Shown here piece after piece: positions 2,713 to 26,045 of a stretch of DNA of 64,000 nt (position 1 is the stretch's first letter; every line of letters begins with the position of its first letter). The translations under genes and the position numbers were made by a program. The notes under the pieces were generated by a model. It made no database searches and was not told the origin of the DNA. It saw nothing but the letters and a program-made list of their open reading frames with translations. Location: the NCBI GenBank assembly GCA_963662545.2, contig CAXXLL010000002.1, positions 2,048,001 through 2,112,000 on the forward strand. The letters run 5' to 3'. The stretch is from Gammaproteobacteria bacterium. Its GTDB lineage: Bacteria > Pseudomonadota > Gammaproteobacteria > Ga0077536.

Positions 2713-2867
2713 GGTCCTGCTGAAACAGCAAGTCCCGCCGATCGGTTCAAGGGCGCCCGAGAGGTCTTCCTATGCGGCCCTCGGCTCGATTCGCACCCAA
2801 CTTCATCGTAATATCATTCCGCTTCGGCCCCGTTCCACGATATGAATTCAAAACAAGGGAATGCCCA

Positions 2868-3632
2868 ATGCAATACTCCACTGTTAAGGAACTGATCGAC
2901 TGTGACGGCTTGCGCATCGTCCTGGTACAGGGTGTACCCAGTCCCTGGGGGATGGCGGCCAAGGCCATGATCGAGCACAAGGGCCTGGACTACGCAGCGG
3001 CGCCATTGATAGGGGGTGACACGAACGACGACATCGTTGCGTGGAGCGGTGTCAATAGCGGCCCCGTCGTGGCGTGGAACGACGAGGCCCCCATCAACCG
3101 CTGGAACGACATCCTGTTTCTGCTGGAGCGCCTCGCACCCCAGAAGCCGTTACTCCCTGACGAACCCGCCAAGCGCGTTCGCGCCATCGGCTTGTCGCAT
3201 GAAATTTGCGGTGAGCTCGGGCTTGGCTGGAACCGCCGCCTGAGTCTGTTCAAACCGGCCATGCAAACGAGCGAACCACCCAAAGGCATGGTGCGAATGA
3301 GCGGTAAATATGGCTATAACGAAGCCGACGTCGCGGCTGCCGAGCAGCGCCAGATCGCATCCCTGAACATGCTGACCGCCGAACTCAAGGCGCAGAGCGG
3401 GAAAGGCAGCGATTATTTCGTCGGTAATTCAGTGACTGCGGTCGATTTCTACTGGGCGGCGTTCTGCAATATCTTCGACATCCTACCGCTGGACAAATGT
3501 CCGATCGCCGAGCCGTTTCGACCGATGTTTCAAAATATAGACCCAGGCGTAAGAGCCGCCCTCGATCCGGTCCTACTGGCGCACCGCGACCGTATCATGG
3601 AAGCCCATTTCAAAATACCAATGGAATTCTGA
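2868..3632 (+). CDS. Divergent glutathione S-transferase-like protein
   Basis: N-terminal PSPW motif, PVV-WND, and C-terminal YFVGNSVTAVDFYWA resembling the GST C-domain; AAGGGA RBS. Confidence 0.6.
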   Translation: MQYSTVKELIDCDGLRIVLVQGVPSPWGMAAKAMIEHKGLDYAAAPLIGGDTNDDIVAWSGVNSGPVVAWNDEAPINRWNDILFLLERLAPQKPLLPDEPAKRVRAIGLSHEICGELGLGWNRRLSLFKPAMQTSEPPKGMVRMSGKYGYNEADVAAAEQRQIASLNMLTAELKAQSGKGSDYFVGNSVTAVDFYWAAFCNIFDILPLDKCPIAEPFRPMFQNIDPGVRAALDPVLLAHRDRIMEAHFKIPMEF

Positions 3633-3665: not shown

Positions 3666-4604
3666 GTGAGCATCCGCATCGGCTTCGGCCTCATCAATTA
3701 TCCGTTCGAGGATGGATTCGGCTTCTTCCGATGGGTCGAATTGCTGGAACGGAGCGGGGTCGATTCGGTATGGCAATCGGATCGATTGATCTCGACCGAT
3801 AACTACCTCGAGTCGCTGAGCGCATTGGCGTCGCTTGCGGGATGCACCGAACGCATCAAGTTCGGCATGAACGCAATCGTGGCGCCGCTGCGTGACCCGC
3901 TGGTGCTCGCCAAACAGTGCGCGACGATCGATTTTCTCAGCAACGGCAGGCTGCTGCCGATGTTCGGTGTCGGCTACCCCAAGGCCGTTGAATGGGCCGC
4001 GACGGGACGCAGTTCTGATCATCGGGGCTCACGGGCCAACGAGATGTTCGAATTGCTCGCGCGGCTGTGGAGCGAGGAATCGGTGAACTTCGAGGGGAAG
4101 TTCTTCAATTACAACAATGCCACCATCGCGCCGCGGCCCATACAGCAACCCATGCCTTTATGGATTGGCGGCACGAGTCCGGCGGCGATTCGGCGCACCG
4201 GCCGTCTGGGCAGCGGTTGGATCGGCGGTATCGCGAGCCCGGAAGACGTTCGCGTCGCGATCAAGGGGATCAAGATTGAAGCAGCCAAGGCGGGACGGGT
4301 GATCGACAATGATCATTACGGTGCTTCGCTGGGTTACCGGATCGGCAGCCCGGACGACGATGCGGTTACGAACTCACCCTTCGTCAAGCGCACGGGAATC
4401 GGTGAGAAAGTAGACCTCAACCCCCTGTTCTGCATCGGCAGCACGGGGGAGATGATCGATCGTCTGCGGGAATACGTAGACGCGGGCGCTTCGAAGTTTG
4501 TTCTGTTTCCAATCGCTGCGGGAGAAAAAGACATGATCGACCAGACCCGCCGCGTCATCGAAGAAGTTATGCCCGCCATCGAAGATCGGCCGATTGCGGC
4601 GTAG
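3666..4604 (+). CDS. LLM-class flavin/F420-dependent oxidoreductase
   Basis: GVDSVWQSDR, RDPLVLAKQCATIDFLSNGR, PLWIGG, EEVMP motifs. Confidence 0.88.
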   Translation: MSIRIGFGLINYPFEDGFGFFRWVELLERSGVDSVWQSDRLISTDNYLESLSALASLAGCTERIKFGMNAIVAPLRDPLVLAKQCATIDFLSNGRLLPMFGVGYPKAVEWAATGRSSDHRGSRANEMFELLARLWSEESVNFEGKFFNYNNATIAPRPIQQPMPLWIGGTSPAAIRRTGRLGSGWIGGIASPEDVRVAIKGIKIEAAKAGRVIDNDHYGASLGYRIGSPDDDAVTNSPFVKRTGIGEKVDLNPLFCIGSTGEMIDRLREYVDAGASKFVLFPIAAGEKDMIDQTRRVIEEVMPAIEDRPIAA

Positions 4605-4759
4605 CATCGCCGTTCTCGCGAACCGGCGACGCCGCTCCGTCATGCGGCTCCCGTACCGCAACGCCGTTGCCTTCACCCGGGGAAACGCCGGACGGGTGCG
4701 GGTTTAAGATACCCCTTAGCCGTATCCGCGACGCCCGCTTGGGCGCCATTGGATCACAC

Positions 4760-5020
4760 TTAGTGGCGGGGGCGGTCGTTACGCGGTCGCGCCTGGTTCA
4801 CCCGCGCGGTGCGGCCTTTGAGCATGGCGCCGTTCAATTCAGTGATCGCAGCTTCACCTTCACTTTGGTTCGGCATGTCAACGAAACCGAATCCTTTCGA
4901 GCGACCGGTATCACGGTCCATTATTATTTTTGCATCGGCGACTTCGCCATGCTGTTCGAATGCTTCGCGCAATTCTTCAACCGTGATTTCATAGGACAGA
5001 TTGCCTACATAGATATCCAT
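4760..5020 (-). CDS. RRM-domain RNA-binding protein
   Basis: RNP2 IYVGNL and RNP1 KGFGFVDM motifs; ATG at 5020. Confidence 0.92.
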   Translation of the reverse strand: MDIYVGNLSYEITVEELREAFEQHGEVADAKIIMDRDTGRSKGFGFVDMPNQSEGEAAITELNGAMLKGRTARVNQARPRNDRPRH

Positions 5021-5610
5021 ACGTGATTGCCTCTTGGATCGCGCCGTCACTGGTCACCATTGGGCAGCCCGCTTGACGGCAAACGAGCGGGCTACGGAAA
5101 AACAGGAAGGGAATACGGGGCGTGGCCCCCAGCATACATCGGACGCCTGGGTGTATGGCGCTGATGATGAAAGCTTAGTGGAAACCATTTCGCTTGGCGG
5201 CTACTCGAAGACCTGATCGCGGTTTATTTGTTCCGGACGCGGCATGCGCGCGCTTGGAATGAAGACTCATGATAAGCAAGGTTGAATGTCCTGGGATCGA
5301 GTGTTCGGCGAAAGGGAGAGAAAACAGCGATGTGCGATGAAGAAAAAACGGAGTCAGTAAACGGGAAACGTCTGCCGACCGGAACCGAATCCGGCTTTCC
5401 TGGTCGCCCTCTGGCTAATGCTCTTTTATTCCTCGGTTATCGTTTGGCGCCTTGCGCGCCAGATCTAATCATAGACGGCAAAAGTGGTGGCATCAACATT
5501 TAATTGATCCCCGTTTATTCGCGCTGCAACATCGAAATTCGTCTGCCATTTAGGATCCGCCGCCGACGCCTTCGGGACGACCCGACCGCAGGGCGACACC
5601 TCGGCTCCAA

Positions 5611-6468
5611 TCAGGGTTTTTTGCCCGACGCTATCCAGGTTATACCCTTCAGTCCAAATGTCATTCCGTCGCTCAGTTCCGTAACGCGACCCGTGAACTC
5701 CTGGACGAAATCTTTTCGGTTTTGCTCGTCCATCTCGTTGTAAAGCACCGCGATGGGACCGGCGAGGTCGTAGAGAATTTTCCAGTATTCACCCGCCGTG
5801 TCCGCTTCGAAGGGGGTGATCTCCATGTCTTCCACGGTCGCGCCAATAAAGCCCGCCGCCTCCATCGTCTCAGTGATACGCTTTTCGTCGGCGAACGCGA
5901 ACATTCCCGGCACGTTGGGAGATGGTTGTGGGACTTCGCGGTAATTGCGCAACACTTCGATCGAGAGGCTGATGAAGGGATTTCGATCGGGTTCGGCCCA
6001 GCAGGCCAACGCGAGATGAGCGCCGCTGCGCAGAACTCGGTGTATGCGCGTCAGCACGCCGAGCGGATCCGGCATGAACATCAAGCCCCAACGCATTGTC
6101 GCCGCGTCAAACGTACTGGCTTCGAGCTCCAGCATTTCGCTGTCGATGCAGCGAAACTCGATATTTTCGAGGCGCGCTTCTCGTGCGTGCACACGCGCGT
6201 AAACAAGCATATCCTCGACGAGGTCCGTGCCGAGGACTCTACCGCCCGCGCCGACCCGTCGAGCTGCGCTGATAGCCGGTTCGCCGCTGCCCGAGGCAAG
6301 GTCGAGCACGGCCGCGCCAGGTCGGATGCGGGCTAGTTCAAGCATGCGGGAGGTGACCGGGGCACTGCAACGGGCCAGCAGCTCATGGCGCCGATGCCAA
6401 CCGTCGGCGACGGTCGACCAGGTTTGGTGTTGCTGCTGCTTGAGCTGTTCCGGATTGGGCTGGTTCAT
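5611..6468 (-). CDS. Class I SAM-dependent methyltransferase (UbiE-like)
   Basis: VLDLASGSGEP motif I, FDAATMRWGLMFMPD. Confidence 0.88.
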   Translation of the reverse strand: MNQPNPEQLKQQQHQTWSTVADGWHRRHELLARCSAPVTSRMLELARIRPGAAVLDLASGSGEPAISAARRVGAGGRVLGTDLVEDMLVYARVHAREARLENIEFRCIDSEMLELEASTFDAATMRWGLMFMPDPLGVLTRIHRVLRSGAHLALACWAEPDRNPFISLSIEVLRNYREVPQPSPNVPGMFAFADEKRITETMEAAGFIGATVEDMEITPFEADTAGEYWKILYDLAGPIAVLYNEMDEQNRKDFVQEFTGRVTELSDGMTFGLKGITWIASGKKP

Positions 6469-6469
6469 C

Positions 6470-6517
6470 TATAGGGTCCGGTTATGGTCCGTGTATAGGG
6501 TCCGGTTATGGTCCGTG
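6470..6517. repeat. Exact 24-bp tandem duplication
   Basis: TATAGGGTCCGGTTATGGTCCGTG at 6470-6493 and 6494-6517. Confidence 0.95.
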
Positions 6518-6584
6518 CCGACGCGAAGGCCAGCTTCGCCGAAGTGAACACTCAAGACATGCGTCATTCGTGCGGATCTGATAC

Positions 6585-6959
6585 TTATTCCGTCGCGGGT
6601 TGATAGTGACAATACACCCGGCAGACGAGATTTTCATCGTCGAATACCATGGTCTCAACGGCACGAAGATTCCTGACGCTGGTATACACGAGACTAATAC
6701 TCGAGACGCCCGGCACGGTATAGCCGGGCGTGAACTTCAGATCGGGAAAATTCGCCAATGCATTGGACCAGTATTCTCGCAACGCGGCCTTACCGTCGAC
6801 AGTGGCTTTGCCGCCGGCGAATTCGATCGCGAATGGTGAAGAAAAGACCACATCTTGAGCGTAATGTTCGAGGATCCGATCGAGATCGTGGCTATTCCAG
6901 GCTGCGAACCATGCGGCCGCGAACGCGTCCGCGAATTCCTGAGTCAAGGTTTTCGACAT
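6585..6959 (-). CDS. NTF2/SnoaL-like protein
   Basis: AWNSHDLDRILEHYAQDVVFSSP, GKAALREYW; GTAAGG RBS just after the upstream gene stop. Confidence 0.85.
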   Translation of the reverse strand: MSKTLTQEFADAFAAAWFAAWNSHDLDRILEHYAQDVVFSSPFAIEFAGGKATVDGKAALREYWSNALANFPDLKFTPGYTVPGVSSISLVYTSVRNLRAVETMVFDDENLVCRVYCHYQPATE

Positions 6960-6966
6960 CCTTACC

Positions 6967-7944
6967 TCACCGTTCCATGACGACCTTGCCATAAATTTCG
7001 CGATTCTCGATCAGATGCATTCCCTGTTTGACGTCTTCGAAAGGCAAGCTACGAAAAATCAGTGGTTCGATAGCGCCCCGCGCCAGTAGATCGTATAGGT
7101 GATTTTGACAGGCCTCTCCCTTGGCCGGATCACGCCCCAGGTACTGTCCCCAGGCGAGGCCCATCACGGACATGTTCTTCAGTAGTATGCGGTTGCATTC
7201 GATTTGCGGGATACGGCCGCTGGTAAAACCGATGATGACGATACGGCCTTCCCAGTTGATGCATCGCTTGATCTGGTCAAAGGCATCGCCACCGACCGGA
7301 TCGATGATGACATCCGCACCGCGCCCGTCGGTCAAGTCCCGTACGCGCTCGACGATGTCTTCCTCACGGTAATTAACGACGTGATCTGCACCCTGGTCCC
7401 GGCAGACGTCGAGTTTCTGTGCCGTTCCTGCCGCCGCGATGACTGCGGCGCCGAGCACCTTACCCAGTTGAATGGCGGCGGTGCCGACGCCGCCAGCACC
7501 GCCGAGCACGAGCAATACTTCACCGGCTTCAATGCGGGCACGGTGAACCAGGGCGAAATAGGCCGTCCCGTAAGTCACGCTCAGCGCCGCTGCCTGGAGG
7601 TCCGACACACGGTCCGGCACCGTCCAGCCGATACTGTTGTCGATGACGAAGTAATCGGCGAGTGTACCGCCGCCGTGGTTGAAGCCGACGACCCGCTCGC
7701 CGACCTTGAACTTGCTTCGAGAGCCGGCCGCTTCGACGATGCCGACGGCCTCGCAGCCCGGCACCGCGGGTAAGGGCGCCCTCTGCTGGTAGAGGCCCTG
7801 GCAGATCAAGAGATCGGGAAAATTGAGTGAAACCGCGGCGGTCCGCACGACGGCTTCATCGGCTTTGGGCACCGGATCCGGACGCTCGGTCCAGTGCAGG
7901 ACTTCTTCGAACCGTCCGTATTGTTCGAACTGCCAGGCTTTCAT
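6967..7944 (-). CDS. NADPH:quinone oxidoreductase (MDR family)
   Basis: LNFPDLLICQGLYQ, VLGGAGGVG, GKVVM; start at MKAW (7944). Confidence 0.9.
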   Translation of the reverse strand: MKAWQFEQYGRFEEVLHWTERPDPVPKADEAVVRTAAVSLNFPDLLICQGLYQQRAPLPAVPGCEAVGIVEAAGSRSKFKVGERVVGFNHGGGTLADYFVIDNSIGWTVPDRVSDLQAAALSVTYGTAYFALVHRARIEAGEVLLVLGGAGGVGTAAIQLGKVLGAAVIAAAGTAQKLDVCRDQGADHVVNYREEDIVERVRDLTDGRGADVIIDPVGGDAFDQIKRCINWEGRIVIIGFTSGRIPQIECNRILLKNMSVMGLAWGQYLGRDPAKGEACQNHLYDLLARGAIEPLIFRSLPFEDVKQGMHLIENREIYGKVVMER

Positions 7945-8111
7945 GACGACTGTGAAGGGGCGAGCCGGAAAAAGAGAAAGCCATTTAACATGGCTTTCTC
8001 CCGGTGAGTGCCCGGCCACGGATGGCCGGGCCGGCGTAAAACGAAGGCGCTGAGTTACCGCCATGGACGGCAATCACGGAGTGAATGATCAATTGCCCGC
8101 GCGTACGGGCA

Positions 8112-8972
8112 TCAGATGAGATCGGTATCGTTGGGTTCGTCAATCACTTCGTTTTCGATGTGTCCGATGTTTTCTATTTCGACTTTGACTGAGTCGCCCA
8201 CTTGCAGGTATCTGCGGGGCTTGAAACCGATGCCAACGCCGCTTGGCGTGCCAGTAAGGATCAAATCGCCCGGTTCCAGGGTAAAGGCCTGGGTCAGGGT
8301 TTCGACCTGTTCGAAACAATCGTACACGAGCTGGCTGGTAGAGGAATCCTGACGCAGTTCGCCATTGATCCAGGTCTTGAGGGCCAGGTCATGCGGATCG
8401 CCGAATTCATCGCCCGTCACTAGCCATGGACCAAATGGACAGTGCGTATCAAAGGATTTGCCGAGGGTGAAGGTCTGTGCGCGCATCTGCCAGTCCCGCA
8501 CGCTGACGTCGTTGCACACCACATAACCCGCAATGACTTCGTGCGCTCGATCGCGCGGCACGTGACGGCAGGTCCGCCCAATGATGAATCCCAGCTCACC
8601 CTCGTAGTCGAGCTTGTCCGACACTCGAGGCAGGTGAATCGGCGCGTAAGGTCCGTTCGCCGCAGTCGACTGCTTGTTGAAGAACATGGGGAAGTCAGGC
8701 GTATCCAGCCCTGTTTCCGCAATGTGGTCCTTGTAATTCAGTCCGATCGCCAGGATCTTGGGCGGACGCAGCACTGGCGCACACAGGGTGACCTTGGTGA
8801 TTGCGAATTCCTCGCCAGCGGCAGTGGCGGCGAGCTTCATGGCGTCGCTGCCCGCCGCGAACAGGACGCTCATCTCGATCGGCAGACCCGAATCAATGAG
8901 GTCGATGATGACCTCGCCCTCGACCCGTCCGACCCGCGGAATGCCGTTTTCGATAAACGTAGCGAGCTTCAT
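8112..8972 (-). CDS. Fumarylacetoacetate hydrolase family protein
   Basis: IGLNYKDH, DYEGEL, NDVSVRDWQ, KSFDTHCPFGP, TGTPSGVG. Confidence 0.93.
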   Translation of the reverse strand: MKLATFIENGIPRVGRVEGEVIIDLIDSGLPIEMSVLFAAGSDAMKLAATAAGEEFAITKVTLCAPVLRPPKILAIGLNYKDHIAETGLDTPDFPMFFNKQSTAANGPYAPIHLPRVSDKLDYEGELGFIIGRTCRHVPRDRAHEVIAGYVVCNDVSVRDWQMRAQTFTLGKSFDTHCPFGPWLVTGDEFGDPHDLALKTWINGELRQDSSTSQLVYDCFEQVETLTQAFTLEPGDLILTGTPSGVGIGFKPRRYLQVGDSVKVEIENIGHIENEVIDEPNDTDLI

Positions 8973-9002
8973 CCACCGGTACTCCGAGTGCGCGCCTTGG
9001 GC

Positions 9003-11170
9003 TCAACGATAGTGCAGAATCTTGTACTCATCGATCCGCATTTCTCTGGCCGGCGGCACGACCACCGTGGTCATCGGATCACGGATGATCACAGGACCCT
9101 CGACGATGTTGCCGGGCGCGAGTTCACTCATTTCATAGACGTCGAATTCGATCCAGGCGTCTTTATGGTAGACCTCGCGCCGACCCACGAAAGCTGTTTT
9201 CGACGGCGTCTCATCACGGAGTTCGTACCGCCGTAACTGCGGTTGCGGCTTCGGCGCGATAGCCTCCAAGTTGACCTCTGTTAATGAGTAGCCCGCTTCG
9301 GTGAATTTGGAGCCTTCCGGATAAATATTCGAATACATGGTCTCGAACGCGTCGATCATCCGCCCGATGTCCTCCGAGCTTTCCATGCGTCCGGAATCCA
9401 GCGCCGTATCGAAGCTTTCGATCTGCCCTATGTAGCGGGCAGAGATACCATAGCGGAACGTAATGCGATCGGGATCCACGCCTTCGGCGGCCATTTCCGC
9501 GCGCGCCTCGCGTTCGAGTTCACGCCAGGCCGAGTGGATTTCGCCGGCGGTCGCATCGAGGTCCTCGGTCGTGGCGCCGGGTGGGATCAGAACACGCAGA
9601 CCGCGATCGTAGCGGTGCATGTATTCGGCACACGCGGCGCCGAAGGCAGAAAATCCCGCAGCCCAGGGCAGGGTGATGATGTCCTTGAACTCAATGCCTT
9701 CTGCAAAACCGTGCATGTGCACCGGTCCCGCGCCGCCGTAATACAGCATCGTAAAGTCGTGTGTATCGTAGCCCTTGGACGCGATCATGGTGCGTAGCAG
9801 GTCGTTCATCTCGGCGTTGATGATATCCAATACGCCAGCGCCCGCCGTGTAGACGTCCAGCCCCAGTGGTTCGGCGACCGTTTGTTCAAGGGCCTTGAGC
9901 GCGGCGTCGCGATCGAGCTTGACCTGCCCGCCAAGAAAGTAATCGGGATCGACGTAGCCGAGTGCCACGTTGATGTCGGTCACGGTCAGGCGATCGTGTT
10001 TGAAACAGATACCAACCGCGGCGCCGGCGCTGTCGGGGCCGACATGCAGACGTTTGTATTCGTCGACCCGGACGACCGAGCCGGCGCCGTTGCCGGCCGA
10101 ATCGAGTTCCACCATGGGCAGCGCGAGGCGATGCCCCGCAATGTCCGCGCTCTTGGTGATGCCGATACGGCCGTCGATCAACAAGCCCACGTCGAAACTG
10201 GTACCGCCCATGTCCGCCGTCACGATATTGGCGATGCCCATTTGTTTGGCCACGAACTGAGCGCCGATAAGCCCGCCGATCGGGCCCGAGATCAACGTTT
10301 CGTAAAGCCTCGGATAATCCATGTTGACCGCTCCTCCGTAGGACAGAAGCGTCAGCAAGCGACCGTCAAAGCCGAGTTTCTTCGCCTGATTCTCGACGTC
10401 GAGCAGCGATTCGCGTACTTGCTCGGCGGCAAAGCACTGGAACAGCAGGCTCTTCATACGGTTATTCTCTTTGGATACGGGTGCGACATCTGCCGAGCAC
10501 ACGACGGGCAGCTTAAGGCCGCGCTCGGCTACGATTTTCTCGACCAGCGCTTTCGCCTGGTGCTCGTGCACGGGATCGACGAAAGAGAAGAGGAAGAGAA
10601 TTCCGATGACCTCGCAGCCATTGTCGAGCAGCTTGTGGGCGCCCTCGCGCACCTGGCCTTCATGGACCGGGATGAGGGTATGGCCGGGCGGCAGGTGAAT
10701 GTCTCCCTGGTAGCAGCCGCCGCCTAGACGTTCACTGACGCTGACCACGTTCCCGCGCTCGACCAAGGGCCGCGTATGGCGGTGTAGTTGCTGGTGAAGC
10801 GCTTCGGCCTGGCTCTGGCCGAGGTAGGTCAGACCGCCTTCCATCACGGTGATGTCCTCAAATCCGCGGGTGACCATCAGGCCGACCTTGCGGCCCTCGC
10901 CGGTCAGTAGCGTATTGAGCATCCCCGTGCCGCAGTAGATGTCGGCCACGCACTGGCGGTGCACGTCGCTCGATTCGACCCCGATGGAGTGCGCCGCGTC
11001 GTCGACGGCGTCACGATAGCTGCGGGCCTGGTCATCGCGGCGGCTGATCGATTTGCCGATGGTGAACGTGCCGTCCGGTTTGACCAGGATGGCGTCGGTC
11101 ATGGTTCCGCCGGCGTCGAGCGCGAGAATGAACTGCGCTCTCCACCCGCGGAGGCGGCGGTCGTACTCAT
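9003..11170 (-). CDS. Hydantoinase A/oxoprolinase family protein, acetone carboxylase beta subunit-like (apparent 5' frameshift)
   Basis: ILALDAGGTMTD, ISGPIGG, DMGGTSFD, GPDSAGA, YGGAGP motifs; the RBS-led ATG at 11170 is out of frame with the main ORF (9003..11102). Confidence 0.85.
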
Positions 11171-11219
11171 GGTTTGTTCCCCGTGCTTACAGGCGGGCGT
11201 GAATCGCGTCTAGCAGAAA

Positions 11220-11783
11220 TTAAGCCCAGCCCGACGTGACTTTGCTCGACCGATCCTCGTACCAATCGTCAGCTTCGTCTGCTAGCGGCCTACCCAGGTA
11301 ATCGCGGTAAAACTTGTCGAGATCGGGCAACATTTCAAAGACGATAGGATAACCCGGCGCGACGACCTCGACAGCGTGCTGCGTCGCGCAGGATGGGCAG
11401 AAGAATTCGCGGACTTCCTGCCAGCCCGGCTCGGGCACGGCGGGCGCAGGAGCGAAAACCTGAGACATTTCGGCCGAGGTCTTGCGCGTGCGGATCCTGC
11501 ATCTGAGCTTCCAATTCTCACGGTAATCGCCGAAATCGTTGCCGCATTCACATTGGACGACACGATCGCCGTTGGCGTTCAACACCACGTATAGCTTGTC
11601 GCCCAATCGCAGCAGGATTTTGTCTTGCCAGGGAACGCGCTCCTGTAAGACCTCGATATAGTTGAAAAAACGATCCTTGTCCTTACGGGGCAACTTGAGC
11701 AGGCGTTCAGCGTTGTCGTCGTCAATGGTGCCGTCGACGAGTTGACGGATCAGGTCCTTACTGACCGCGGGGACATCCGTCAT
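11220..11783 (-). CDS. Acetone carboxylase gamma subunit-like protein
   Basis: KDKDRF, CECG..FGDYRENWK, REFFCPSC, VEVVAPGYP, PDLD.FY; four Zn-binding Cys. Confidence 0.88.
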   Translation of the reverse strand: MTDVPAVSKDLIRQLVDGTIDDDNAERLLKLPRKDKDRFFNYIEVLQERVPWQDKILLRLGDKLYVVLNANGDRVVQCECGNDFGDYRENWKLRCRIRTRKTSAEMSQVFAPAPAVPEPGWQEVREFFCPSCATQHAVEVVAPGYPIVFEMLPDLDKFYRDYLGRPLADEADDWYEDRSSKVTSGWA

Positions 11784-11786
11784 CGC

Positions 11787-14027
11787 TCAATCCTCCCCGA
11801 AATTGAAGTCGACAGGCATTTGCCAGAATCCCATAAATTCGTTTTTGAATTTGTCGAAACTCAAGCTCTGCTGGTACATTTCGGACACCTCAGGCAGGAA
11901 GGATTTTGCTTCAACCTGCTTGCGTTCGGACCGCCACCACTGCTCGACGTCGATCGACTCATCGAGGCGGGCCTGGCGCAGATCGGCGCGCTTGCGTTCG
12001 GTCGCCGCAGCACCCAAGGTCCAGCCACCGTCTGCGGCCTGCACGGCGACGACGCCATGCATCTCGGATACGAATTCGTAATCGGGACAGACACCGGTGT
12101 TGAGGTCGTCGATCACCAGGGCCGGATCGCGGTCCAGGGGATCACCCCACCCACCGCCGGTGCCCGCCGCATCGACGAAGAGGTCGTTGTTGTTGAGCGC
12201 AAGCTCGGGGCAGTCCGTCTTCCAGATCTCGAGGTTCTCGACAACCAAGCGCTTCTCCTCGATCATCTCGAGCAGTTCATTCGCATCGCGCGGGGTCTCG
12301 CCGTCTTCGATGAGTTCGTCCAGATTCGTGCCGCGCGCGGAGATCATGAAACTGGCGGGACCGGGATAGGCGCCGCTCATGCCGAGCCCGACGGAAGGCG
12401 TGCATGACAAGCCGCCGTTGGGACGGGTCAAGGCCAGGTGCTTACCGGGCTCGACACACCAGTGCACGGCAGAGTTGCCGGGTCCGCCGCGATACTTGCC
12501 GTAACCGAAGTACCCCGGTAGGAGTTTCCGTCCGAGATAGAACAAGGGCGGTACCGTGCTCTCGAATTCCTCGGCGTCGCCGATGGTCGCGATCTGTGAC
12601 CAGGCCGCCCAAACTAGGGGTTCACCGTCTTTATAGCACCACGCGCCGCGGCCGGTCCCGCCCAGCCACTCGAAGTTGGTAAAACCGTAATTCGTGCCGT
12701 CCGCGGTCGTTCCCTGGCCCTGAAACGCGCCCCAATTGCCGTCGATGGTGAAGGCTTCTTCGAGGTAGCCGCGCGAGAACATCGCCCGGCTGACCGAGCC
12801 GAAGCCGATGCTGTTCAAAGCGACGGTTTGCGCCCAGAGATTGGCGTTGCTCGTAAATTCGTTGTCCGGATTGTAGATGCTGCCCTTGGGGTAATGGCGC
12901 TGAATGGCAAGGTCGATGCCGGCCGTGACCTTGGTGTTGTGGGCGAAGGAATTGATCATGCCGAGGAACACCGCGCAGTCAGTGCCGCCCGGCGTCGCGT
13001 TATAGGAGTGATAGCCCCATTTGGAGCTCCCTTCGGTGTCCAGCAACAATCCGTTCTCGTTAGGCTCGACGCTGCCGCGCACGTGGATCAAGGTGTTCTT
13101 GTCGGCATGCGACCAGACGTGCTGCAGGCCCTTGTACTTGACCAGGCGGAAGGCGCAGCCGTTATAGGTACCGGGCACCATGGTGGAACGGATATTGTCG
13201 ACCACCATGCGGCGGCTTTCCTCGATGACTTCGCGGATCGCGCGCTTGTAATAATCAATGCCGAACTCTTCGATGAGCTTGTGCGCGGCTTCGTGAATCA
13301 TGGCGCAGCCGGCCAGGCGCATCTTGTCGTCCAGGATGTTCATCGTCGCGGCCCGCGTCCGTCGCTCCCAAATCGCCTTCCACCACGACTCCTGCTTGAG
13401 CTTGCGTCCGGTGCGCATGGGCGGGCAGACCAGCCCGTCCATGAAGGTGTCGACCGAAAACGTCGCCCAGCTACCGGCCACGGGCGCGCCGTTCTCCATC
13501 AGGTGATTGATGCCGATGGCCCAGGCGACGACTTCGCCGTCGATGCACACGGGCACGAATGAGTAGAAATCCCCCGGATGAGGAACGCCGCCGGTCAGAC
13601 CGTCGCTAACTGCGTACACGTCGCCGTCGTCGATGCCGTCGTTGACGTCATAGTCGTTATTCGCCATGTAGCGAATGGCGACTGGGAAGATCACGGTATG
13701 CGAAAGAAAGCCGAGCGATACGGCCAGGGTGTCGCCTTCGGGTGTGGCAATGCCCCACAGGCATTCGCCCATTTCCCGCGACCCCGGGCTCGCGGCCACG
13801 TAACGAGCGCTCTCGCGCGCGGCCAGCACCGCGGCGTGCAGCTTGGCATAGAAGCGCTCGTATCGAATGGGATCGGAATCGCGCAGGGTCAGCTCTTCCA
13901 CGCCGCAGTAGTGCCCAGTCTCCTGCGTGAGCCGGTCGCGCTCGGCGATCATTTCCTTCAGGGTCGGATGCTGCCTAACGGGGCTGGGGACATCTAGCCT
14001 TTCACGTTCGCTCAAAGCTTCAGCCAT
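11787..14027 (-). CDS. Hydantoinase B/oxoprolinase family protein, acetone carboxylase alpha subunit-like
   Basis: LRDSDPIRYE, AASP, HPGD and NH metal-ligand motifs, GKYRGGPG, GGGWGDPLDRDP; AGGAGAA RBS before ATG 14027. Confidence 0.88.
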   Translation of the reverse strand: MAEALSERERLDVPSPVRQHPTLKEMIAERDRLTQETGHYCGVEELTLRDSDPIRYERFYAKLHAAVLAARESARYVAASPGSREMGECLWGIATPEGDTLAVSLGFLSHTVIFPVAIRYMANNDYDVNDGIDDGDVYAVSDGLTGGVPHPGDFYSFVPVCIDGEVVAWAIGINHLMENGAPVAGSWATFSVDTFMDGLVCPPMRTGRKLKQESWWKAIWERRTRAATMNILDDKMRLAGCAMIHEAAHKLIEEFGIDYYKRAIREVIEESRRMVVDNIRSTMVPGTYNGCAFRLVKYKGLQHVWSHADKNTLIHVRGSVEPNENGLLLDTEGSSKWGYHSYNATPGGTDCAVFLGMINSFAHNTKVTAGIDLAIQRHYPKGSIYNPDNEFTSNANLWAQTVALNSIGFGSVSRAMFSRGYLEEAFTIDGNWGAFQGQGTTADGTNYGFTNFEWLGGTGRGAWCYKDGEPLVWAAWSQIATIGDAEEFESTVPPLFYLGRKLLPGYFGYGKYRGGPGNSAVHWCVEPGKHLALTRPNGGLSCTPSVGLGMSGAYPGPASFMISARGTNLDELIEDGETPRDANELLEMIEEKRLVVENLEIWKTDCPELALNNNDLFVDAAGTGGGWGDPLDRDPALVIDDLNTGVCPDYEFVSEMHGVVAVQAADGGWTLGAAATERKRADLRQARLDESIDVEQWWRSERKQVEAKSFLPEVSEMYQQSLSFDKFKNEFMGFWQMPVDFNFGED

Positions 14028-14190
14028 GGGGACTTCTCCTGGGTGCTCAGATGGCGGTGCGCGATGTGAAAAGTTGTCGATTCTTGCACAACGACGAGTA
14101 TAGCGCGACGCAGCCTGGTTGCCGCTGCCAGGCGCCATTCATACAATCCATTGGCTTTCGCGGCCACCCGGACCCGCAGGGAACGCATCG

Positions 14191-15213
14191 ATGAAAATTG
14201 CCTTCATGCCCGATACCCATTTCGGCGAATATGACCAAGCGGTTCCGCCGACGCCGGCCGCAGTGGCCGATGCCATGGAACATTGCATCGCCGAGGCCGA
14301 GTTGGCCGAAACCGTCGGTTTCGACGGCCTATGGGTGCCCGAGCGGCATCAACGCCCGGAGACATGGTGGCCCAACACGGTGACCTTGCTTGCCGCGCTC
14401 GCCGCGCGCACGACGAAGGTGACGCTTGCCTGTACGGTCATCCAACCGACCTTTCACCACCCGATCCACCTCGCCGAGGCGCTGGCGGCGGTCGATAACT
14501 TGAGCCGTGGGCGCTTGGTGTTCGGCGCAGGCGTCGGTTACCACCCCGATTACTTCCGCTGCTTCGGCGTGCCCTTCGAGCAACGCGGCAAGCGCTTCGA
14601 AGAGACCATGGACTGCATCGTCGGCGCCTGGACCGAAGAAGAATTCGACTATGAGGGCGAGTTCTTTCGCTACGAAGGCGTCAGAATGATGCCCAAACCG
14701 TATCAGAATCCGCGGCCGCCCATCTGGATCGGCGCCTTCGCGCCAAAGCCGATGGAGCGGGCCTTGAACTATGAGGGCTGGTGTCTGTGGTTTCCGCCCC
14801 ATGTCGACGAACTGGCCGTAGCAGTAAAGGGCATGCGCGAAAAAGCCGCGGCCCGCGGCAAGCAAGACTTCCAGATCACCCTCGGCTTCGAAGGCTGGCT
14901 CAGCGACGAGGCCGACGTTCGCGAGAAGCATGGTCACCGCTGGGTGCGCGAATTGAGCTTTTATGCCGAGAAGGGCTTGTCACCCGACACCGAGGCCAAG
15001 GACCTGCTGGAACCCTTGGAAAACACGTTTCTGTGCCTGGGCAATAAGCAGAAATGGGTCGACCGCATGGGCGAGATGAAAGACAAGGTCAATCCCGACT
15101 GGTTGTGTATCCGCACCCGCAACCCGGTCAATCCAGGTAAATACTATCCGCCCCGGACCGAGTGCCTGGAGGTGATAGAGCGGTTCGGGGAGATTTTGGG
15201 AGAGATTCGGTGA
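14191..15213 (+). CDS. LLM-class flavin-dependent oxidoreductase
   Basis: GFDGLWVPERH, HPIHLAE..AAVDNLSRGR, PKPYQNPRPPIWIG. Confidence 0.88.
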   Translation: MKIAFMPDTHFGEYDQAVPPTPAAVADAMEHCIAEAELAETVGFDGLWVPERHQRPETWWPNTVTLLAALAARTTKVTLACTVIQPTFHHPIHLAEALAAVDNLSRGRLVFGAGVGYHPDYFRCFGVPFEQRGKRFEETMDCIVGAWTEEEFDYEGEFFRYEGVRMMPKPYQNPRPPIWIGAFAPKPMERALNYEGWCLWFPPHVDELAVAVKGMREKAAARGKQDFQITLGFEGWLSDEADVREKHGHRWVRELSFYAEKGLSPDTEAKDLLEPLENTFLCLGNKQKWVDRMGEMKDKVNPDWLCIRTRNPVNPGKYYPPRTECLEVIERFGEILGEIR

Positions 15214-15253
15214 CTTTGTACGCCTTTTTGTTCCTGACGCCGCGTTTGTCTAA

Positions 15254-15378
15254 GGGGACAGAAAGGAATTCTGTCCCCGGTGGCTTCGGTTCGGCACCGT
15301 GGCATCGACTATACGGCGTACGGTCAGCGGCAGGCGCATCGATCATTCGGCGTGGGGAGAGAATTCCTTTCTGTCCCC
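15254..15378. repeat. Inverted pair of 25-bp palindromic REP-like units
   Basis: GGGGACAGAAAGGAATTCTGTCCCC (15254-15278) and its reverse complement with one mismatch (15354-15378). Confidence 0.75.
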
Positions 15379-15411
15379 GTTCTTGGCACGACGTTTAGGG
15401 GGAGCACATTA

Positions 15412-16452
15412 ATGAAGCTAGGACTAGTTTTCGGATACTCAGGCGCCCAGATAAAACTGCCCATGGATTTGATCCTCGAAGCAGAATCACTCGGCTTCGA
15501 TTCCGTGTGGAGCGCGGAAGCCTGGGGCTCTGATGCGGTGACGCCGGTTGCCTGGGTACTGGCCCAAACCACGAAGATCAAAGCTGGCACCGCCATCATG
15601 CAGATGGCTGCGCGCACCCCGGCGATGACTGCGATGACGGCCATGACCCTGGATCAATTGTCCGGTGGGCGCTTTCTCTTGGGCATCGGTCCATCCGGGC
15701 CACAGGTGATCGAAGGTTGGTACGGCCAGCCTTACGGCAAACCGCTGAAACGGACACGCGAGTACATTTCGATCATCCGCGCCATCCTGGCGCGCGAAAA
15801 ACCCCTGGTCCACGACGGCGAGCATTATCAGATTCCGTACACGGGCGCGGGCGCTATGGGCCTCGGCAAGCCGTTAAAAAGTATTCTGCACGGCAACCCG
15901 GATCTCCCGATCTATACCGGCGCCGTAACAGAAAATGGTGTGAAGTGCGCCGCCGAGGTGGCTGACGGCTGCTTTATGGTGTGGATGAATCCCGAGCGCT
16001 TCGAACTGTTCAAACCCGCGCTCGACGCCGGTTTCGCCAAGGCCGGCAACGGCAAAAACATGTCGAGCTTCGAATTCGCGCCCTTCGTGCGCATGCGCAT
16101 GGGACCGGATATCGACCAGTGCCGCCTGGCGATCAAAAACGAACTGGCGCTCTACGTCGGCGGTATGGGTGCGCGGGAGAAGAATTTCTACAACGATTAC
16201 ACCAAGCGGCTGGGTTACGAGGAAGCCGCGGTGAAGATTCAGGATCTCTATCTTTCGGGCAGGAGAGAGGAAGCCGCCGCCGCGGTCCCGGACCAATACG
16301 TCGACGATTGTTCCCTGGTCGGGCCGCCAGAACATATCAAAGAGCAACTCACGCGCTGGCAGGAGGCGGGACGGCGCGGGGAGGTCACCACCATGGTCAT
16401 CGCCGCAAAGCAGGTGGAAGAACTCAGACTGCTGGCGGAGACTCTGTTATAG
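15412..16452 (+). CDS. LLM-class F420-dependent oxidoreductase (Rv3520c-like)
   Basis: AEAWGSDA, ARTPAMTAMTAMTLDQLSGGR, GPQVIEGWYG, ALYVGGMGAREKNFYN. Confidence 0.9.
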   Translation: MKLGLVFGYSGAQIKLPMDLILEAESLGFDSVWSAEAWGSDAVTPVAWVLAQTTKIKAGTAIMQMAARTPAMTAMTAMTLDQLSGGRFLLGIGPSGPQVIEGWYGQPYGKPLKRTREYISIIRAILAREKPLVHDGEHYQIPYTGAGAMGLGKPLKSILHGNPDLPIYTGAVTENGVKCAAEVADGCFMVWMNPERFELFKPALDAGFAKAGNGKNMSSFEFAPFVRMRMGPDIDQCRLAIKNELALYVGGMGAREKNFYNDYTKRLGYEEAAVKIQDLYLSGRREEAAAAVPDQYVDDCSLVGPPEHIKEQLTRWQEAGRRGEVTTMVIAAKQVEELRLLAETLL

Positions 16453-16508
16453 AATTGCATCAGCGCGGCGATACGCGTTGTGAAAACACTTCAACGGGGA
16501 GAAACATC

Positions 16509-17369
16509 ATGCAATGGAAAGTGGGCGATACCACGATTACCAAACTCGAAGAAATCGTATATCCCGAGTTTCCCGACGTCATCCCGGCCGCAACGCCGGA
16601 CGTGGTCAAGAAAGTAGAGTGGCTGTTCCCACATTTCGTGACCGACGAAGGTATGCTTACGCTCAGCGTACACTCGATTATCGTCGACACGGGCGAGGCC
16701 AAGATCGTGGTCGACACCTGCATCGGCAATGGGCGCGATCGCGATCCGTTCGAGGTGATGCACATGCTTTCGACCTCGTACATGGAAGATATGAAAGGCG
16801 CGGGATACGAACCGGAAGCGATCGACTACGTGCTATGCACGCACCTGCACCTCGACCACGTCGGCTGGAACACGCACGAGGTCGACGGCAAATTCGTGCC
16901 GACCTTTCCCAATGCGACCTACCTCATGACCAAGGGTGACATGGAATTTTGGGGTGAGCAGGAGATCGACGACGATTTCATGAGACTGCAACGTCGGGTA
17001 TGGGACGATTCGGTGCAGCCGGTCTTGGACGCCGGACTCTCGAAATCGATCGAAGGGCCGGCTGAGGTCTGCGCAGGCGTGCGCCTCATTCCGACGCCCG
17101 GACACACCCCTGGGCATTGCTCGGTAATTATCGAATCCAAGGGCGAGACCGCAATGATCACGGGTGATTTCATTCACCACCCGATCCAGTTCAACGACCC
17201 GGGCCTGGTCAGCCCCTTCGACGTCGACAACGATACCGCGGTCGCCACCCGTCGCCGCATTTTCGGCGAGTACGCGGACTCACCGACACTCATCATCGGC
17301 ACCCATTTCGCCGGGCCGACAGCCGGTAAGCTCGTGCGCGACGGGGATACCTATCGCCTCGACGTATAG
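16509..17369 (+). CDS. MBL-fold metallo-hydrolase (lactonase/YtnP-like)
   Basis: THLHLDHVGWN, PTPGHTPGH, TGDFIHHP, GTHF; GGGGAGA RBS. Confidence 0.9.
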   Translation: MQWKVGDTTITKLEEIVYPEFPDVIPAATPDVVKKVEWLFPHFVTDEGMLTLSVHSIIVDTGEAKIVVDTCIGNGRDRDPFEVMHMLSTSYMEDMKGAGYEPEAIDYVLCTHLHLDHVGWNTHEVDGKFVPTFPNATYLMTKGDMEFWGEQEIDDDFMRLQRRVWDDSVQPVLDAGLSKSIEGPAEVCAGVRLIPTPGHTPGHCSVIIESKGETAMITGDFIHHPIQFNDPGLVSPFDVDNDTAVATRRRIFGEYADSPTLIIGTHFAGPTAGKLVRDGDTYRLDV

Positions 17370-17389
17370 GCGATCGTGTGCAGCACAAC

Positions 17390-17432
17390 GGGCTCCTACG
17401 CATTCCTTGCATAGGAGCCCGCTTGCGGGCGA
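17390..17432. repeat. GTAG-family REP elements between convergent genes
   Basis: GGGCTCCTAC (reverse complement GTAGGAGCCC) and ATAGGAGCCCGCTTGCGGGCGA, a REP-type stem-loop. Confidence 0.55.
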
Positions 17433-17452
17433 ACCGGCCTGCGCGCCACGGT

Positions 17453-18508
17453 TCAGAATACGAACGACACCCCGCCAATCAGCCTGAAATCGACATCGGT
17501 CTGCACACCCTTGGGCGCATCTACGATCGGATAGCCGATCGAGAGGAAAGCGCCGACCTGCCTGTACGAAACCCTCAATCCAGGTGACAAGTAGACCACC
17601 GTACCGCCCGAATGAGCTTCCGAGGCGCCGCCGATCTCGTTCTTCCAGCGCGTTTCGCCGTTGATCTCGAGCATCGCATCCCAGCGCAGATGGGGATGGG
17701 CGCCGATGTGCTCACCGTGGTGCGGGTGCCCGTTCTCCGATAGCGCATAAACCACGGCGGCGTTATAGAACAGCGCGTCGCCGAATTCCGTGTCCTGCGA
17801 ACCTTCGTTCGTGAGATGGAACAACAGGTTGGCATGCAGACCCCAGCGCCCCAGTGCGCGGCTGAGCGCGCCACCGATCAGGAAATCCCAGGAACCGGTA
17901 CCCGGCTGAAACTCGGTTTCAAGCCGCTCGCCGCGATCGGATTCGTGTGTTTCGCCGGAAGGTGCTTTGAATCCCATCTGCACGGACGCATCGAACCCGT
18001 TCGCGTGCAGCGCCCGGTAACTGCCGAGGAAAACGAGATCGCCAAGGCCTGAAGCGTCACCGTGACCGTGCGCCTCGCCCACGCCGCCTTCGAGTTCACT
18101 TTCGCGGATATTGTCTCGTGCCACGCGGGGCACACGCACGCTCAGCGTAATCTTATCGGTAGCGCCATAGGCGAGGGCGGCTGACGTGCTGTTGATCTGG
18201 TCGATGGTGTGGACGCCTTCCAGCCCCTGTGCGGCCAGGCCCGCGAGCCGAGCGCCAGAAAATGCATCGCGATCGATGATCTCGTTGCGCAGGCCAAGCG
18301 CCCATTTGCCCGCCGGCATCGCCGCCGCCGCGAGGGTATTGATGGGGCCGCTCGCCTCCGAGCCGAAGACAACGGTCGGGTGATCGGCGTTAACGGGGGA
18401 CGACAGCAGCAGAAATGCGTAAAAGAACGCGCAGCGATGTTGATCAATTATGGATGCCGTGCATCGGTTCCCGAGCATCGCGCGCATGCTACCGGCATCT
18501 CGATCCAC
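17453..18508 (-). CDS. Outer-membrane beta-barrel transporter (Phenol_MetA_deg-like), His-rich loops
   Basis: Signal-like N-terminus, GLGDL, FQPGTGSWD, VYLSPGLRV, C-terminal aromatic F; start uncertain. Confidence 0.7.
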   Translation of the reverse strand: MDRDAGSMRAMLGNRCTASIIDQHRCAFFYAFLLLSSPVNADHPTVVFGSEASGPINTLAAAAMPAGKWALGLRNEIIDRDAFSGARLAGLAAQGLEGVHTIDQINSTSAALAYGATDKITLSVRVPRVARDNIRESELEGGVGEAHGHGDASGLGDLVFLGSYRALHANGFDASVQMGFKAPSGETHESDRGERLETEFQPGTGSWDFLIGGALSRALGRWGLHANLLFHLTNEGSQDTEFGDALFYNAAVVYALSENGHPHHGEHIGAHPHLRWDAMLEINGETRWKNEIGGASEAHSGGTVVYLSPGLRVSYRQVGAFLSIGYPIVDAPKGVQTDVDFRLIGGVSFVF

Positions 18509-19731: not shown

Positions 19732-19748
19732 GCCGTTTCCTCCCGCAG

Positions 19749-20534
19749 TTACCGGCCCTGAAAATCCGGGGCGCGCTTTTCGAGAAAAGCACGGCAGCCT
19801 TCGTGGGCGTCCTTCGAGTCGAGCAGCAGCCCGACCATCGCCTGTTCGTATTGCAGGGCCGCGGCCATGGGCATGTCGCCACCGTGGATCATCGAACGCT
19901 TCAGTAGTTTGAGACTCAACGGCGACTTGCTGCTGATCTTAGCGGCCAGCTCGGTCACGCGGGCACGCAGTTCCGAACGTGGAAACACGTGGTTGACGAG
20001 CCCGTAGCTCAGGGCCTCGGCGGCGGTGATCTGCTCGCCCGTGAACATCATTTCCCGCGCGCGGCACGGCGGCAACTGGCGGAGCAGGCGCTGCGTGCCG
20101 CCGGCACCGGGAAACAGGCCCAGCGTGATCTCGGGAACCCCCAGGCGCGCCTCCTCGGCGACAACGCGGATATCGGTCGCGAGGATGATTTCGGTGCCGC
20201 CGCCAAGCGCCCAGCCGTTGACCGCAGCAATCGTCGGCTTGTCGCAGAGCTCGATGCGCCGGAACAGGCGGTGAATGATCTCGGCGAATTCCTGATAGTG
20301 TGCCAGCCCGTCGCGCGATTGCAGATCGGCGACGTCGCCGCCGGCGACAAAGGCCCGGTCCCCCGCGCCGGTCAAAATGATGACGCGTACGCCGTCGTCA
20401 TCCTCGGCGTGTGTAAACGCCTCGTCGAGTTCGCCCAATGTTTTGACGTCGAGGGCGTTTAGCGTGTCCGGTCGATTGATCGTGATCCACGCGTGATACC
20501 CCTCTAGCTCGTAGGTAATATTGTCATAACTCAT
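19749..20534 (-). CDS. Enoyl-CoA hydratase/isomerase (crotonase)
   Basis: AFVAGGD, ALGGGTE, PEITLGLFPGAGGTQRL; both catalytic Glu present. Confidence 0.92.
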   Translation of the reverse strand: MSYDNITYELEGYHAWITINRPDTLNALDVKTLGELDEAFTHAEDDDGVRVIILTGAGDRAFVAGGDVADLQSRDGLAHYQEFAEIIHRLFRRIELCDKPTIAAVNGWALGGGTEIILATDIRVVAEEARLGVPEITLGLFPGAGGTQRLLRQLPPCRAREMMFTGEQITAAEALSYGLVNHVFPRSELRARVTELAAKISSKSPLSLKLLKRSMIHGGDMPMAAALQYEQAMVGLLLDSKDAHEGCRAFLEKRAPDFQGR

Positions 20535-23568: not shown

Positions 23569-23588
23569 GGAACCAGGAGGATTCAATC

Positions 23589-26024: not shown

Positions 26025-26045
26025 AAACGCTGCGATTATTCAAAG

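Follow-up and report, generated by a model that had tools for sequence, protein, structure and literature searches.

A window of 64,000 nt of a gammaproteobacterial genome was analysed (contig CAXXLL010000002.1 of assembly GCA_963662545.2, positions 2,048,001 to 2,112,000 of the forward strand), and all coordinates below are those of the window. It contains an operon for the three subunits of a complex of the acetone carboxylase (Acx) type, in the order alpha–gamma–beta, which runs on into genes for an FAH-fold enzyme and a reductase. A pair of luciferase-like genes (LLM1 and LLM2) diverges from the operon on the other side. Genes were called from the list of open reading frames (ORFs) together with Pfam and NCBIfam scans, for which 60 ORFs of the window were scanned. 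The subunits are lettered by the Acx and PDB convention, in which alpha is the HydB-type subunit of ~85 kDa (AcxB), beta the HydA-type ATPase (AcxA) and gamma the zinc subunit (AcxC); the paper describing the acetophenone carboxylase (Apc) structure swaps the letters of the two large subunits (PMC5214803). The genes are:

11787–14027, minus strand: alpha subunit, AcxB/hydantoinase-B type, 746 aa (PF02538, 1.7e-56)
11220–11783, minus strand: gamma subunit, small and zinc-binding, Acetone_carb_G, 187 aa (PF08882, 4.8e-36, 123.9 bits)
9003–11170, minus strand: beta subunit, AcxA/hydantoinase-A type, an ASKHA ATPase, with its ORF at 9003–11102 (PF01968, PF19278, PF05378)
8112–8972, minus strand: FAH-fold enzyme, 286 aa (PF01557, 5.5e-72, 242 bits)
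6967–7944, minus strand: MDR-family NAD(P)H oxidoreductase, PIG3/quinone-reductase-like, 325 aa, from ATG 7944 (ADH_zinc_N, ADH_N)
6585–6992, minus strand: SnoaL-like small protein (SnoaL_2, 4.5e-14)
5611–6468, minus strand: class I S-adenosylmethionine methyltransferase (Ubie_methyltran, Methyltransf_11)
14191–15213, plus strand: LLM1, luciferase-like oxidoreductase/monooxygenase, divergent from alpha (PF00296, 1e-52)
15412–16452, plus strand: LLM2, luciferase-like oxidoreductase of an F420-type family (TIGR03559, 388 bits against a cut-off of 335)
16509–17369, plus strand: MBL-fold hydrolase, lactonase-like, 286 aa (Lactamase_B, 1.6e-20)

An earlier note, made from the sequence, had placed these genes and had recognized three Acx-type subunits among them. 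All are found where it put them, with scores far beyond chance. The three subunit families match strongly, the domains of both large subunits lying far above the Pfam gathering scores. The alpha ORF extends upstream to 14138; as its homologues are 746 aa in length, the start is taken as ATG 14027. The gamma gene starts 3 nt past the alpha stop codon, and the FAH gene ~30 nt past beta. The operon has a single HydA-type gene, and no additional gene for a ~30-kDa (epsilon-like) protein lies between or after the subunits. The absence of an adjacent sigma-54 regulator of the AcxR kind, remarked upon earlier, is borne out, with no sigma-54 activator domain among the 60 ORFs scanned; regulator-type genes of the window are a TetR gene (34801–35472) and an Ada/AraC gene (57864–59030). 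Rfam and tRNA scans of the 64-kb window gave no matches. The nearest homologues are annotated as those of uncultured Gammaproteobacteria.

The three subunits of Acx constitute a textbook complex, and the Xanthobacter enzyme is the best relative of solved structure for every subunit, with scores of 349 bits for alpha (5m45_A), 503 bits for beta (5m45_B) and 172 bits for gamma (5m45_C). Scores with Apc are far lower (118 bits for alpha with Apc delta, 296 for beta and 41 for gamma), and alpha gives 37.5 bits with the caprolactamase structure 6yra_B and 50.7 bits with the N-methylhydantoinase structure 7hk5. The NCBIfam models for Apc stay below their cut-offs (ApcD 127.9 against 1500, ApcB 40.2 against 250 and ApcC 316.8 against 1500), as do those for caprolactamase (CapB 43.6 and CapA 337.6, both against 1000). 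The canonical reference used here is the locus of Paracoccus sp. MA (L080), which comes from a plasmid collection and whose alpha subunit scores 1569 bits with 5m45_A. The window proteins are 32.7% (alpha), 35.4% (beta) and 41.8% (gamma) identical to those of L080. For comparison, the characterised enzymes of Xanthobacter and Aromatoleum are reported to be 68% identical to each other (PMC10865871). Within the plasmid collection the window alpha matches 78 records, each at <33% identity, so that close relatives are absent from it.

The complex thus has the three subunits, and the same Pfam families, of Xanthobacter autotrophicus AcxABC (5m45, 5svb) and its orthologues such as L080. It differs from them in gene order, which is beta–alpha–gamma in the canonical operons, as the earlier note has it and as is found in L080 together with an upstream sigma-54-type regulator; in the lack of such a regulator nearby; and in the continuation of the operon into the FAH and reductase genes. 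The canonical order with acxR close by is usual for acetone carboxylase operons but does not strictly define them. Aromatoleum aromaticum Apc (5l9w) and Rhodococcus aetherivorans Acr belong to the same superfamily, include a small zinc subunit and carboxylate a ketone at the expense of ATP. Both are described as needing an epsilon subunit and a further HydA-type subunit (PMC13677872); the operon of the window, with its single HydA-type gene, has neither addition. CapAB, HyuAB and OplAB are two-subunit or fused systems that have no gamma, in contrast to the complex encoded here; the same source describes the small gamma-type subunit as specific to Acx and Apc (PMC13677872).

The catalytic metal site is fully conserved. 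The Mn ligands in the alpha subunit of the Xanthobacter enzyme are Glu89, His150, Asp153 and His175 (PMC5543143), and these align with E88, H150, D153 and H175 of the window alpha. The ligands are invariant in 69/69 sequences of the clade, apart from H175 that is found in 68 of the 69 with an X in the remaining one. Cys78, Cys80, Cys129 and Cys132 of gamma align with the CxC and CxxC of the Xanthobacter gamma, and these four zinc cysteines separate the locus from the two-subunit hydantoinases and oxoprolinases, as was argued in the earlier note. In beta, the adenine-stacking Phe405 of the Xanthobacter enzyme corresponds to F389 and is kept at 61/61 loci, while the position of Ser391 is threonine at all 61. 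A DMGGTSFD-type motif is present in 63/64 and GGAGP in 62/64 beta sequences, the window beta having both; these are taken to be the phosphate and adenosine motifs of the ASKHA fold.

The surroundings of the metal site have changed. The motifs that the earlier note listed for the window alpha (SPGSREMGEC, HPGDFY and NHLMENG) are as given, and so are HPCDIH and THVIDTG for the canonical enzyme; the canonical counterpart of the first, given there as SPIVKEEGEL, reads SPIVEQEGEL. Four tryptophans are described as proximal to the metal in Acx alpha, W401, W408, W438 and W479 (PMC10865871). The window alpha retains W401 and W479, and has Asn405 and Ala434 in place of W408 and W438 respectively. The gating contact between alpha E85 and beta N578 in the Xanthobacter enzyme becomes R84 and E562, which are invariant throughout the clade (69/69 for alpha R84, 61/61 for beta E562). 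The pair fits an alpha/beta switch that may have been kept with its chemistry swapped. The same type of pair occurs in an enzyme from Sinorhizobium meliloti, so it is the canonical enzymes that are the exception at this contact. The S. meliloti operon (L081; pSymB, 4833–9673) is itself a non-canonical three-subunit Acx-like operon with the order beta–alpha–gamma, followed by an SDR gene. Its alpha scores 530 bits with 5m45_A and has glutamine at the position of the His150 ligand, as has cluster representative P0145, and matches like it occur in 53 Sinorhizobium plasmid records.

Relatives of alpha were sought among 1.84 billion cluster representatives, giving 2048 at E ≤ 1e-3 and 131 at E ≤ 1e-30; about 40 further Acx-like clusters at 50% identity are among them. 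A FastTree phylogeny was calculated for 104 full-length alpha sequences, comprising representatives of 660–830 aa, selected members of the clade, L080 and L081, with shorter fragments dropped. The window falls in a clade of 17 rows (support 100) that is nested in a radiation of 40 rows (99). The canonical clade, made up of L080 and three representatives (100), lies apart from this radiation. Both are contained in an Acx-like group of 60 rows (100), which is set off from distant representatives that are presumed to be of the Apc type and are individually unlabelled. In an IQ-TREE phylogeny of 47 of the 104 rows, rooted on six distant representatives, the supports are 100 for the window clade (12 rows), 99 for the canonical clade and 100 for the Acx-like group. 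The subunits therefore lie outside the clade of characterised acetone carboxylases, from which they are separated in both trees with 99–100% support. The earlier note had called the complex undescribed, and this agrees with the literature, where a search on the gene combination of the clade and on its host genera found no characterisation.

Gene neighbourhoods were compared in 79 loci obtained by scanning one genome per species and mapped by tblastn. The close subclade comprises 57 loci with alpha at least 68% identical to that of the window, and its sister subclades 19 loci with alpha 47–62% identical. Each denominator below counts the loci that extend far enough for the position in question to be seen:

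Gamma after alpha: 52/54 close loci, 19/19 sister loci
Beta after gamma: 43/44 close loci, 16/16 sister loci
FAH gene after beta: 40/41 close loci, 0/16 sister loci
Reductase gene downstream of FAH: 31/38 close loci, 0/15 sister loci
LLM1 divergent: 40/49 close loci, 0/17 sister loci
LLM2 divergent: 34/43 close loci, 0/16 sister loci
MBL gene beyond LLM2: 13/39 close loci, 0/16 sister loci

The alpha–gamma–beta order noted at this locus is thus near-universal among its relatives, and the synteny with FAH and LLM genes that the earlier note proposed to check is found at most loci of the close subclade. The conserved unit that emerges from these counts is alpha–gamma–beta–FAH–reductase with the divergent LLM pair. 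The MBL gene is loosely associated with the operon. The downstream gene run that had been called unusual holds as far as the FAH and reductase genes and no further. The methyltransferase has no tblastn match at E ≤ 1e-3 in the 79 related loci, and SnoaL has a single one there, a fragment of 55 aa in L047, the locus nearest to that of the window. These two genes were considered as members of a pathway and rejected, being missing from the related loci; they are lineage-specific bystanders. Downstream of the reductase the loci diverge, with a gene for an RRM protein, a GFA and DsbA-like pair or, at one locus, an alpha/beta hydrolase. A further LLM gene (LLM_c, 3666–4604) and a GST-like gene (2772–3632) also show synteny with the operon at many of the loci.

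The sister subclades share the 100%-supported clade, the alpha–gamma–beta order and the metal ligands with the window, and have none of its FAH, reductase or LLM neighbours at any of the 15–17 loci informative for them. Their members include metagenome-assembled genomes (MAGs) of Cycloclasticus (L059, L060 and L069), Aneurinibacillus terranovensis (L053) and Paradesulfitobacterium ferrireducens (L068), and proteins of Kyrpidia spormannii and Paenibacillus validus group with them. At sixteen positions of alpha the FAH-linked loci (n = 50) and the sister loci (n = 19) each have a fixed residue, and the two residues differ. Four of these flank metal ligands, S83/G, V148/A, F154/T and L176/I (window/sister), with F154 standing beside D153. 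The 16 differences fit a change of substrate or of the way in which the product is handled.

Neighbouring genes were annotated at nine more distant loci, eight from the sister clade and L049 (alpha 72% identical), in which FAH follows beta as in the window. A ligase of ~650 aa resembling Acs and AacS lies directly past beta in L058, L060, L063 and L069, and upstream in L057; these ligases score 490–547 bits with acetate–CoA ligase models, under the cut-off. No Acs-like ligase was seen at L053 or L068, both of which have PrpD/MmgE-family neighbours. Sigma-54 activators are present at L053 and L060, OYE ene-reductases at L057, L058 and L060, and at L058 a PcaF-type thiolase that exceeds its cut-off (700 against 605 bits). 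Coenzyme A (CoA)-transferases and acyl-CoA dehydrogenases are frequent around the annotated loci. Such a context is expected for the conversion of a ketone to a beta-keto acid and then, by activation and thiolysis, to an acyl-CoA, and supports carboxylase function in the wider clade. In the subclade of the window the place of the ligase is occupied by the FAH and MDR reductase genes, and it is at this node of the tree that the 16 alpha positions became fixed.

The partner enzymes are assigned at the level of family. The FAH-fold protein has its best PDB matches with the oxaloacetate decarboxylase YisK (8sky, 188 bits) and L-2,4-diketo-3-deoxyrhamnonate hydrolase (8gsr, 186 bits), and its top equivalog model is 2,4-didehydro-3-deoxy-L-rhamnonate hydrolase, at 212 bits against a cut-off of 500. 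Bacillus subtilis YisK is reported to be an oxaloacetate decarboxylase in vitro (bioRxiv 10.1101/2023.06.26.546597), and the FAH superfamily is described as including beta-diketone hydrolases, decarboxylases and isomerases (PMC4534308). The reductase scores 249 bits with TIGR02824, under the cut-off of 296.8. LLM1 resembles flavin-dependent LLMs, falling just under the cut-off of TIGR03619 (162.7 against 166.9) and giving 107 bits with its best PDB match (7bip), while LLM2 has its best PDB matches with F420-dependent Mer (89 bits). The MBL-fold protein matches AidB, YtnP and 4-pyridoxolactonase models weakly, all far under their cut-offs. In all, five LLM paralogues lie within 17 kb (55–966, 1786–2712, 3666–4604, 14191–15213 and 15412–16452), two of which are over the cut-offs of F420-dependent models (TIGR03620, 271.9 against 219.8, and TIGR03559). 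These are F420-type proteins in an apparent Gammaproteobacterium, and no gene of F420 biosynthesis lies within the 64-kb window.

Taking these observations together, and with moderate confidence, we read the complex as an Acx-type, ATP-dependent and biotin-independent ketone carboxylase, which probably acts on a substrate other than acetone and would pass a beta-keto acid to the FAH-fold enzyme. As for the larger or cyclic substrate suggested in the earlier note, the sole hints are the exchange of two metal-proximal tryptophans for Asn and Ala and the kinds of enzyme encoded nearby. By analogy with Xanthobacter Acx, the ASKHA-fold beta subunit would spend ATP in phosphorylating the enolised ketone and bicarbonate. 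By way of a channel inside the enzyme the intermediates would then reach the Mn/Fe site, formed in alpha by E88, H150, D153 and H175, where the new C–C bond would be made to give the beta-keto acid. Gamma, with its four zinc cysteines, would have a structural role. The FAH-fold enzyme may act directly on the product, with no activation by CoA: it could split a C–C bond of a diketo acid by hydrolysis, or else decarboxylate or tautomerise the product. Preparation of the ketone, for example by reduction of an enone or oxidation of an alcohol, could be the task of the reductase and the two divergent LLMs. Family, position in the tree, conservation of the catalytic residues and synteny are observed; carboxylation, the class of substrate and the parts played by the neighbouring genes are deduced from homology and context.

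Several points weigh against this reading. Carboxylation is deduced by homology at just 33–42% identity, and caution has been urged in assigning function to distant members of the superfamily (PMC5214803). None of alpha, beta, gamma, the FAH-fold enzyme and the reductase reaches an NCBIfam equivalog cut-off. The 16 group-specific positions of alpha derive from a single split in the tree, and so are no independent evidence for a change in substrate. The relatives of the FAH-fold enzyme are divided at equal scores between a beta-keto-acid decarboxylase and a diketo-acid hydrolase, and a decarboxylase adjoining a carboxylase is hard to rationalise. A scan for sigma-70 promoters and terminators over 4500–17600 found no excess over shuffled sequences (4 against 4.3 and 10 against 11.8 respectively), and no well-spaced sigma-54 −24/−12 element was seen by eye in the region between alpha and LLM1. 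Finally, the beta gene as assembled is frameshifted by the loss of 1 nt.

The break lies near the 5′ end of the gene. ATG 11170 has a plausible ribosome-binding site and opens 12 codons, in a frame that gives MSTTAASAGGER and then a stop. The remainder of beta, from QFILALDAGGT, is in a different frame, in which no start codon precedes FILALDAGGT. The first start in that frame is ATG 11102 (giving 699 aa), past the first ASKHA loop (DxGGT, here LDAGGT), whereas a start codon stands ahead of this loop in 71/72 related loci. Two beta relatives are 98% identical, one having 722 aa and the other starting with MSTTAASAGGERQFILALDAGG. Compared with these relatives, and by DNA alignment, the window beta has lost one C of CGC-CAG at ~11135, in codon 13. 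The sole other exception is L047, 96–97% identical to the window, in which a poly-G run (L047:6990–7060) at the same spot likewise wrecks the beta start and the DxGGT loop in that MAG. Runs of this kind usually point to an artefact of the reads or of their assembly. The complex would work in this organism only if the lost base is an assembly error.

It is accordingly possible, though on balance unlikely, that the gene is a recent pseudogene in this organism, a matter that is orthogonal to the function of the complex. The separation of ATG 11170 and the DxGGT loop into two frames, with the lone in-frame start past the loop, is what a pseudogene would show, and the intact form is found both in the 71 related loci and in the two 98%-identical proteins; moreover, no second split gene was noticed among the window ORFs examined. 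Against this, the other 699 codons are open, 98% identical to an intact relative and free of further decay. A lone lost base equally resembles an error of assembly or consensus, and the artefact at the same spot in L047 suggests that the region is difficult to sequence or assemble.

With regard to function, the main alternative is that the complex is an isofunctional acetone/butanone carboxylase on a deep branch, with the FAH, reductase and LLM genes belonging to a nearby catabolic island that has nothing to do with it. The canonical enzyme (EC 6.4.1.6) converts acetone, bicarbonate and ATP to acetoacetate, AMP and 2 Pi. It is reported to accept acetone and butanone only (PMC13677872). The conservation of the metal site, the gamma cysteines and the ATP-site residues would all be explained in this way, and the sister subclades have sigma-54 activators and an Acs/AacS-like ligase, like acetone operons. 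Sequence distance is a poor guide here, given that an Apc-like enzyme of Rhodococcus is an acetone carboxylase (PMC13677872), and acetone is reported to matter as a substrate in aquatic environments (PMC13714315). We nevertheless consider this alternative rather doubtful. The alpha subunit is less than half as identical to canonical Acx as the Xanthobacter and Aromatoleum enzymes are to each other. The operon has no gene for activating acetoacetate, and in its place the FAH gene follows beta within ~30 nt, a partnership kept at all but one of the close loci. Two of the four metal-proximal tryptophans are lost, and the residues flanking the metal ligands differ in a fixed manner from those of the ligase-linked sister group. 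In addition, the authors of PMC13714315 refrain from calling deep-branching AcxB clades, of which the window clade may be one, acetone carboxylases.

A non-carboxylating, ATP-dependent hydrolase or kinase (a lactamase, lactonase, hydantoinase-like or carbonyl-phosphorylating enzyme that has retained gamma) is very improbable: the superfamily does contain ATP-dependent lactam hydrolases (PMC5214803; PMC8453981), beta scores slightly higher with the caprolactamase alpha model than with that of ApcC (338 against 317 bits) and an MBL-fold lactonase-like gene is close by, but the gamma subunit, described as carboxylase-specific (PMC13677872), is conserved at 52/54 loci, the full E/H/D/H metal site is invariant, alpha scores 349 bits with Acx against 37–51 bits with the lactamase and hydantoinase structures, and the MBL gene is found at a third of the informative close loci. 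The lactam or lactone hydrolase that the earlier note had entertained as one role for the complex is therefore unsupported.

Within the reading as a ketone carboxylase with a substrate other than acetone, a more specific scheme can be put forward as speculation, and is itself improbable as it stands. The unit alpha–gamma–beta–FAH–reductase would provide a CoA-independent route of ketone assimilation in which the ketone is carboxylated and then cleaved, the FAH-fold enzyme hydrolysing a 3,5-diketo or beta-keto acid to two acids. The substrate may be a methyl or methylene ketone with a second carbonyl group, or one derived from an enone; candidates may include a 1,3-diketone, an oxo-acid, or a reduced apocarotenoid or isoprenoid enone. 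Carboxylation of pyruvate to oxaloacetate was also considered, prompted by the likeness of the FAH-fold enzyme to oxaloacetate decarboxylases. It was rejected as a leading idea, since a decarboxylase would reverse the reaction and nothing else supports it.

Other features of the window lie mostly beyond the MBL gene. Adjoining that gene at 17453–18508 on the minus strand is a histidine-rich ORF of 351 aa with no Pfam or NCBIfam match, whose C-terminus (...SFVF) resembles that of an outer-membrane barrel; the ORF is 97% conserved in L047. Large ORFs without a family match also occur at 27598–29190 (530 aa) and 40813–42150 (445 aa). The section 18559–32630 is a dense region of CoA-ester catabolism, with acyl-CoA dehydrogenases, enoyl-CoA hydratases, a family III CoA-transferase, an OB-fold/thiolase-like pair, an AMP-forming ligase, a MaoC hydratase and an HpcH/citrate-lyase-like aldolase, and these enzyme types resemble those flanking the sister-clade carboxylases. 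At 35469–38915 there is an IcmF-like fusion of 1148 aa (B12-binding, MeaB GTPase and methylmalonyl-CoA-mutase), preceded by the TetR regulator and followed by a gene of periplasmic-binding-protein fold (38974–39780). The GC content falls to 0.44–0.49 at 42000–48000, compared with ~0.60 elsewhere, and is also low (0.50) at 60000–64000. The genes at 42000–48000 encode GT4 and GT2 glycosyltransferases, a Wzx-like polysaccharide flippase and methyltransferase fragments, and this is probably a horizontally acquired surface-polysaccharide island. A gene for a CoxE-like VWA protein stands beside one for a MoxR/AAA_5 ATPase at 48402–50616, and the Ada/AraC gene at 57864–59030 encodes a full-length Ada-type methyltransferase/AraC regulator.

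Ketone carboxylases that do without biotin are a rare kind of enzyme that forms C–C bonds and fixes CO2, and members of the clade described here abound in lake, groundwater and ocean MAGs. Since its catalytic machinery is kept while the surroundings of the metal site are changed and the partnership with FAH is fixed, the clade is a tangible candidate for a substrate specificity and a downstream route that are both new. Marine bacteria reportedly carboxylate larger isoprenoid methyl ketones, a report that a literature search did not recover. The clade may offer a candidate for the enzyme responsible.

The finding also bears on what the deep-branching AcxB clades of the Arctic Ocean do. Thirteen AcxB homologues from Arctic MAGs are reported to form three such clades, the specificity of which is left open (PMC13714315). 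Like the window enzyme they come from aquatic Gammaproteobacteria and are nearer to Acx than to Apc or the hydantoinases, and they may include the window clade. The clade could broaden the biocatalytic toolbox for the carboxylation of ketones and, if the scheme of carboxylation followed by cleavage is true, it would represent a new CO2-incorporating pathway across freshwater, groundwater and marine Gammaproteobacteria.

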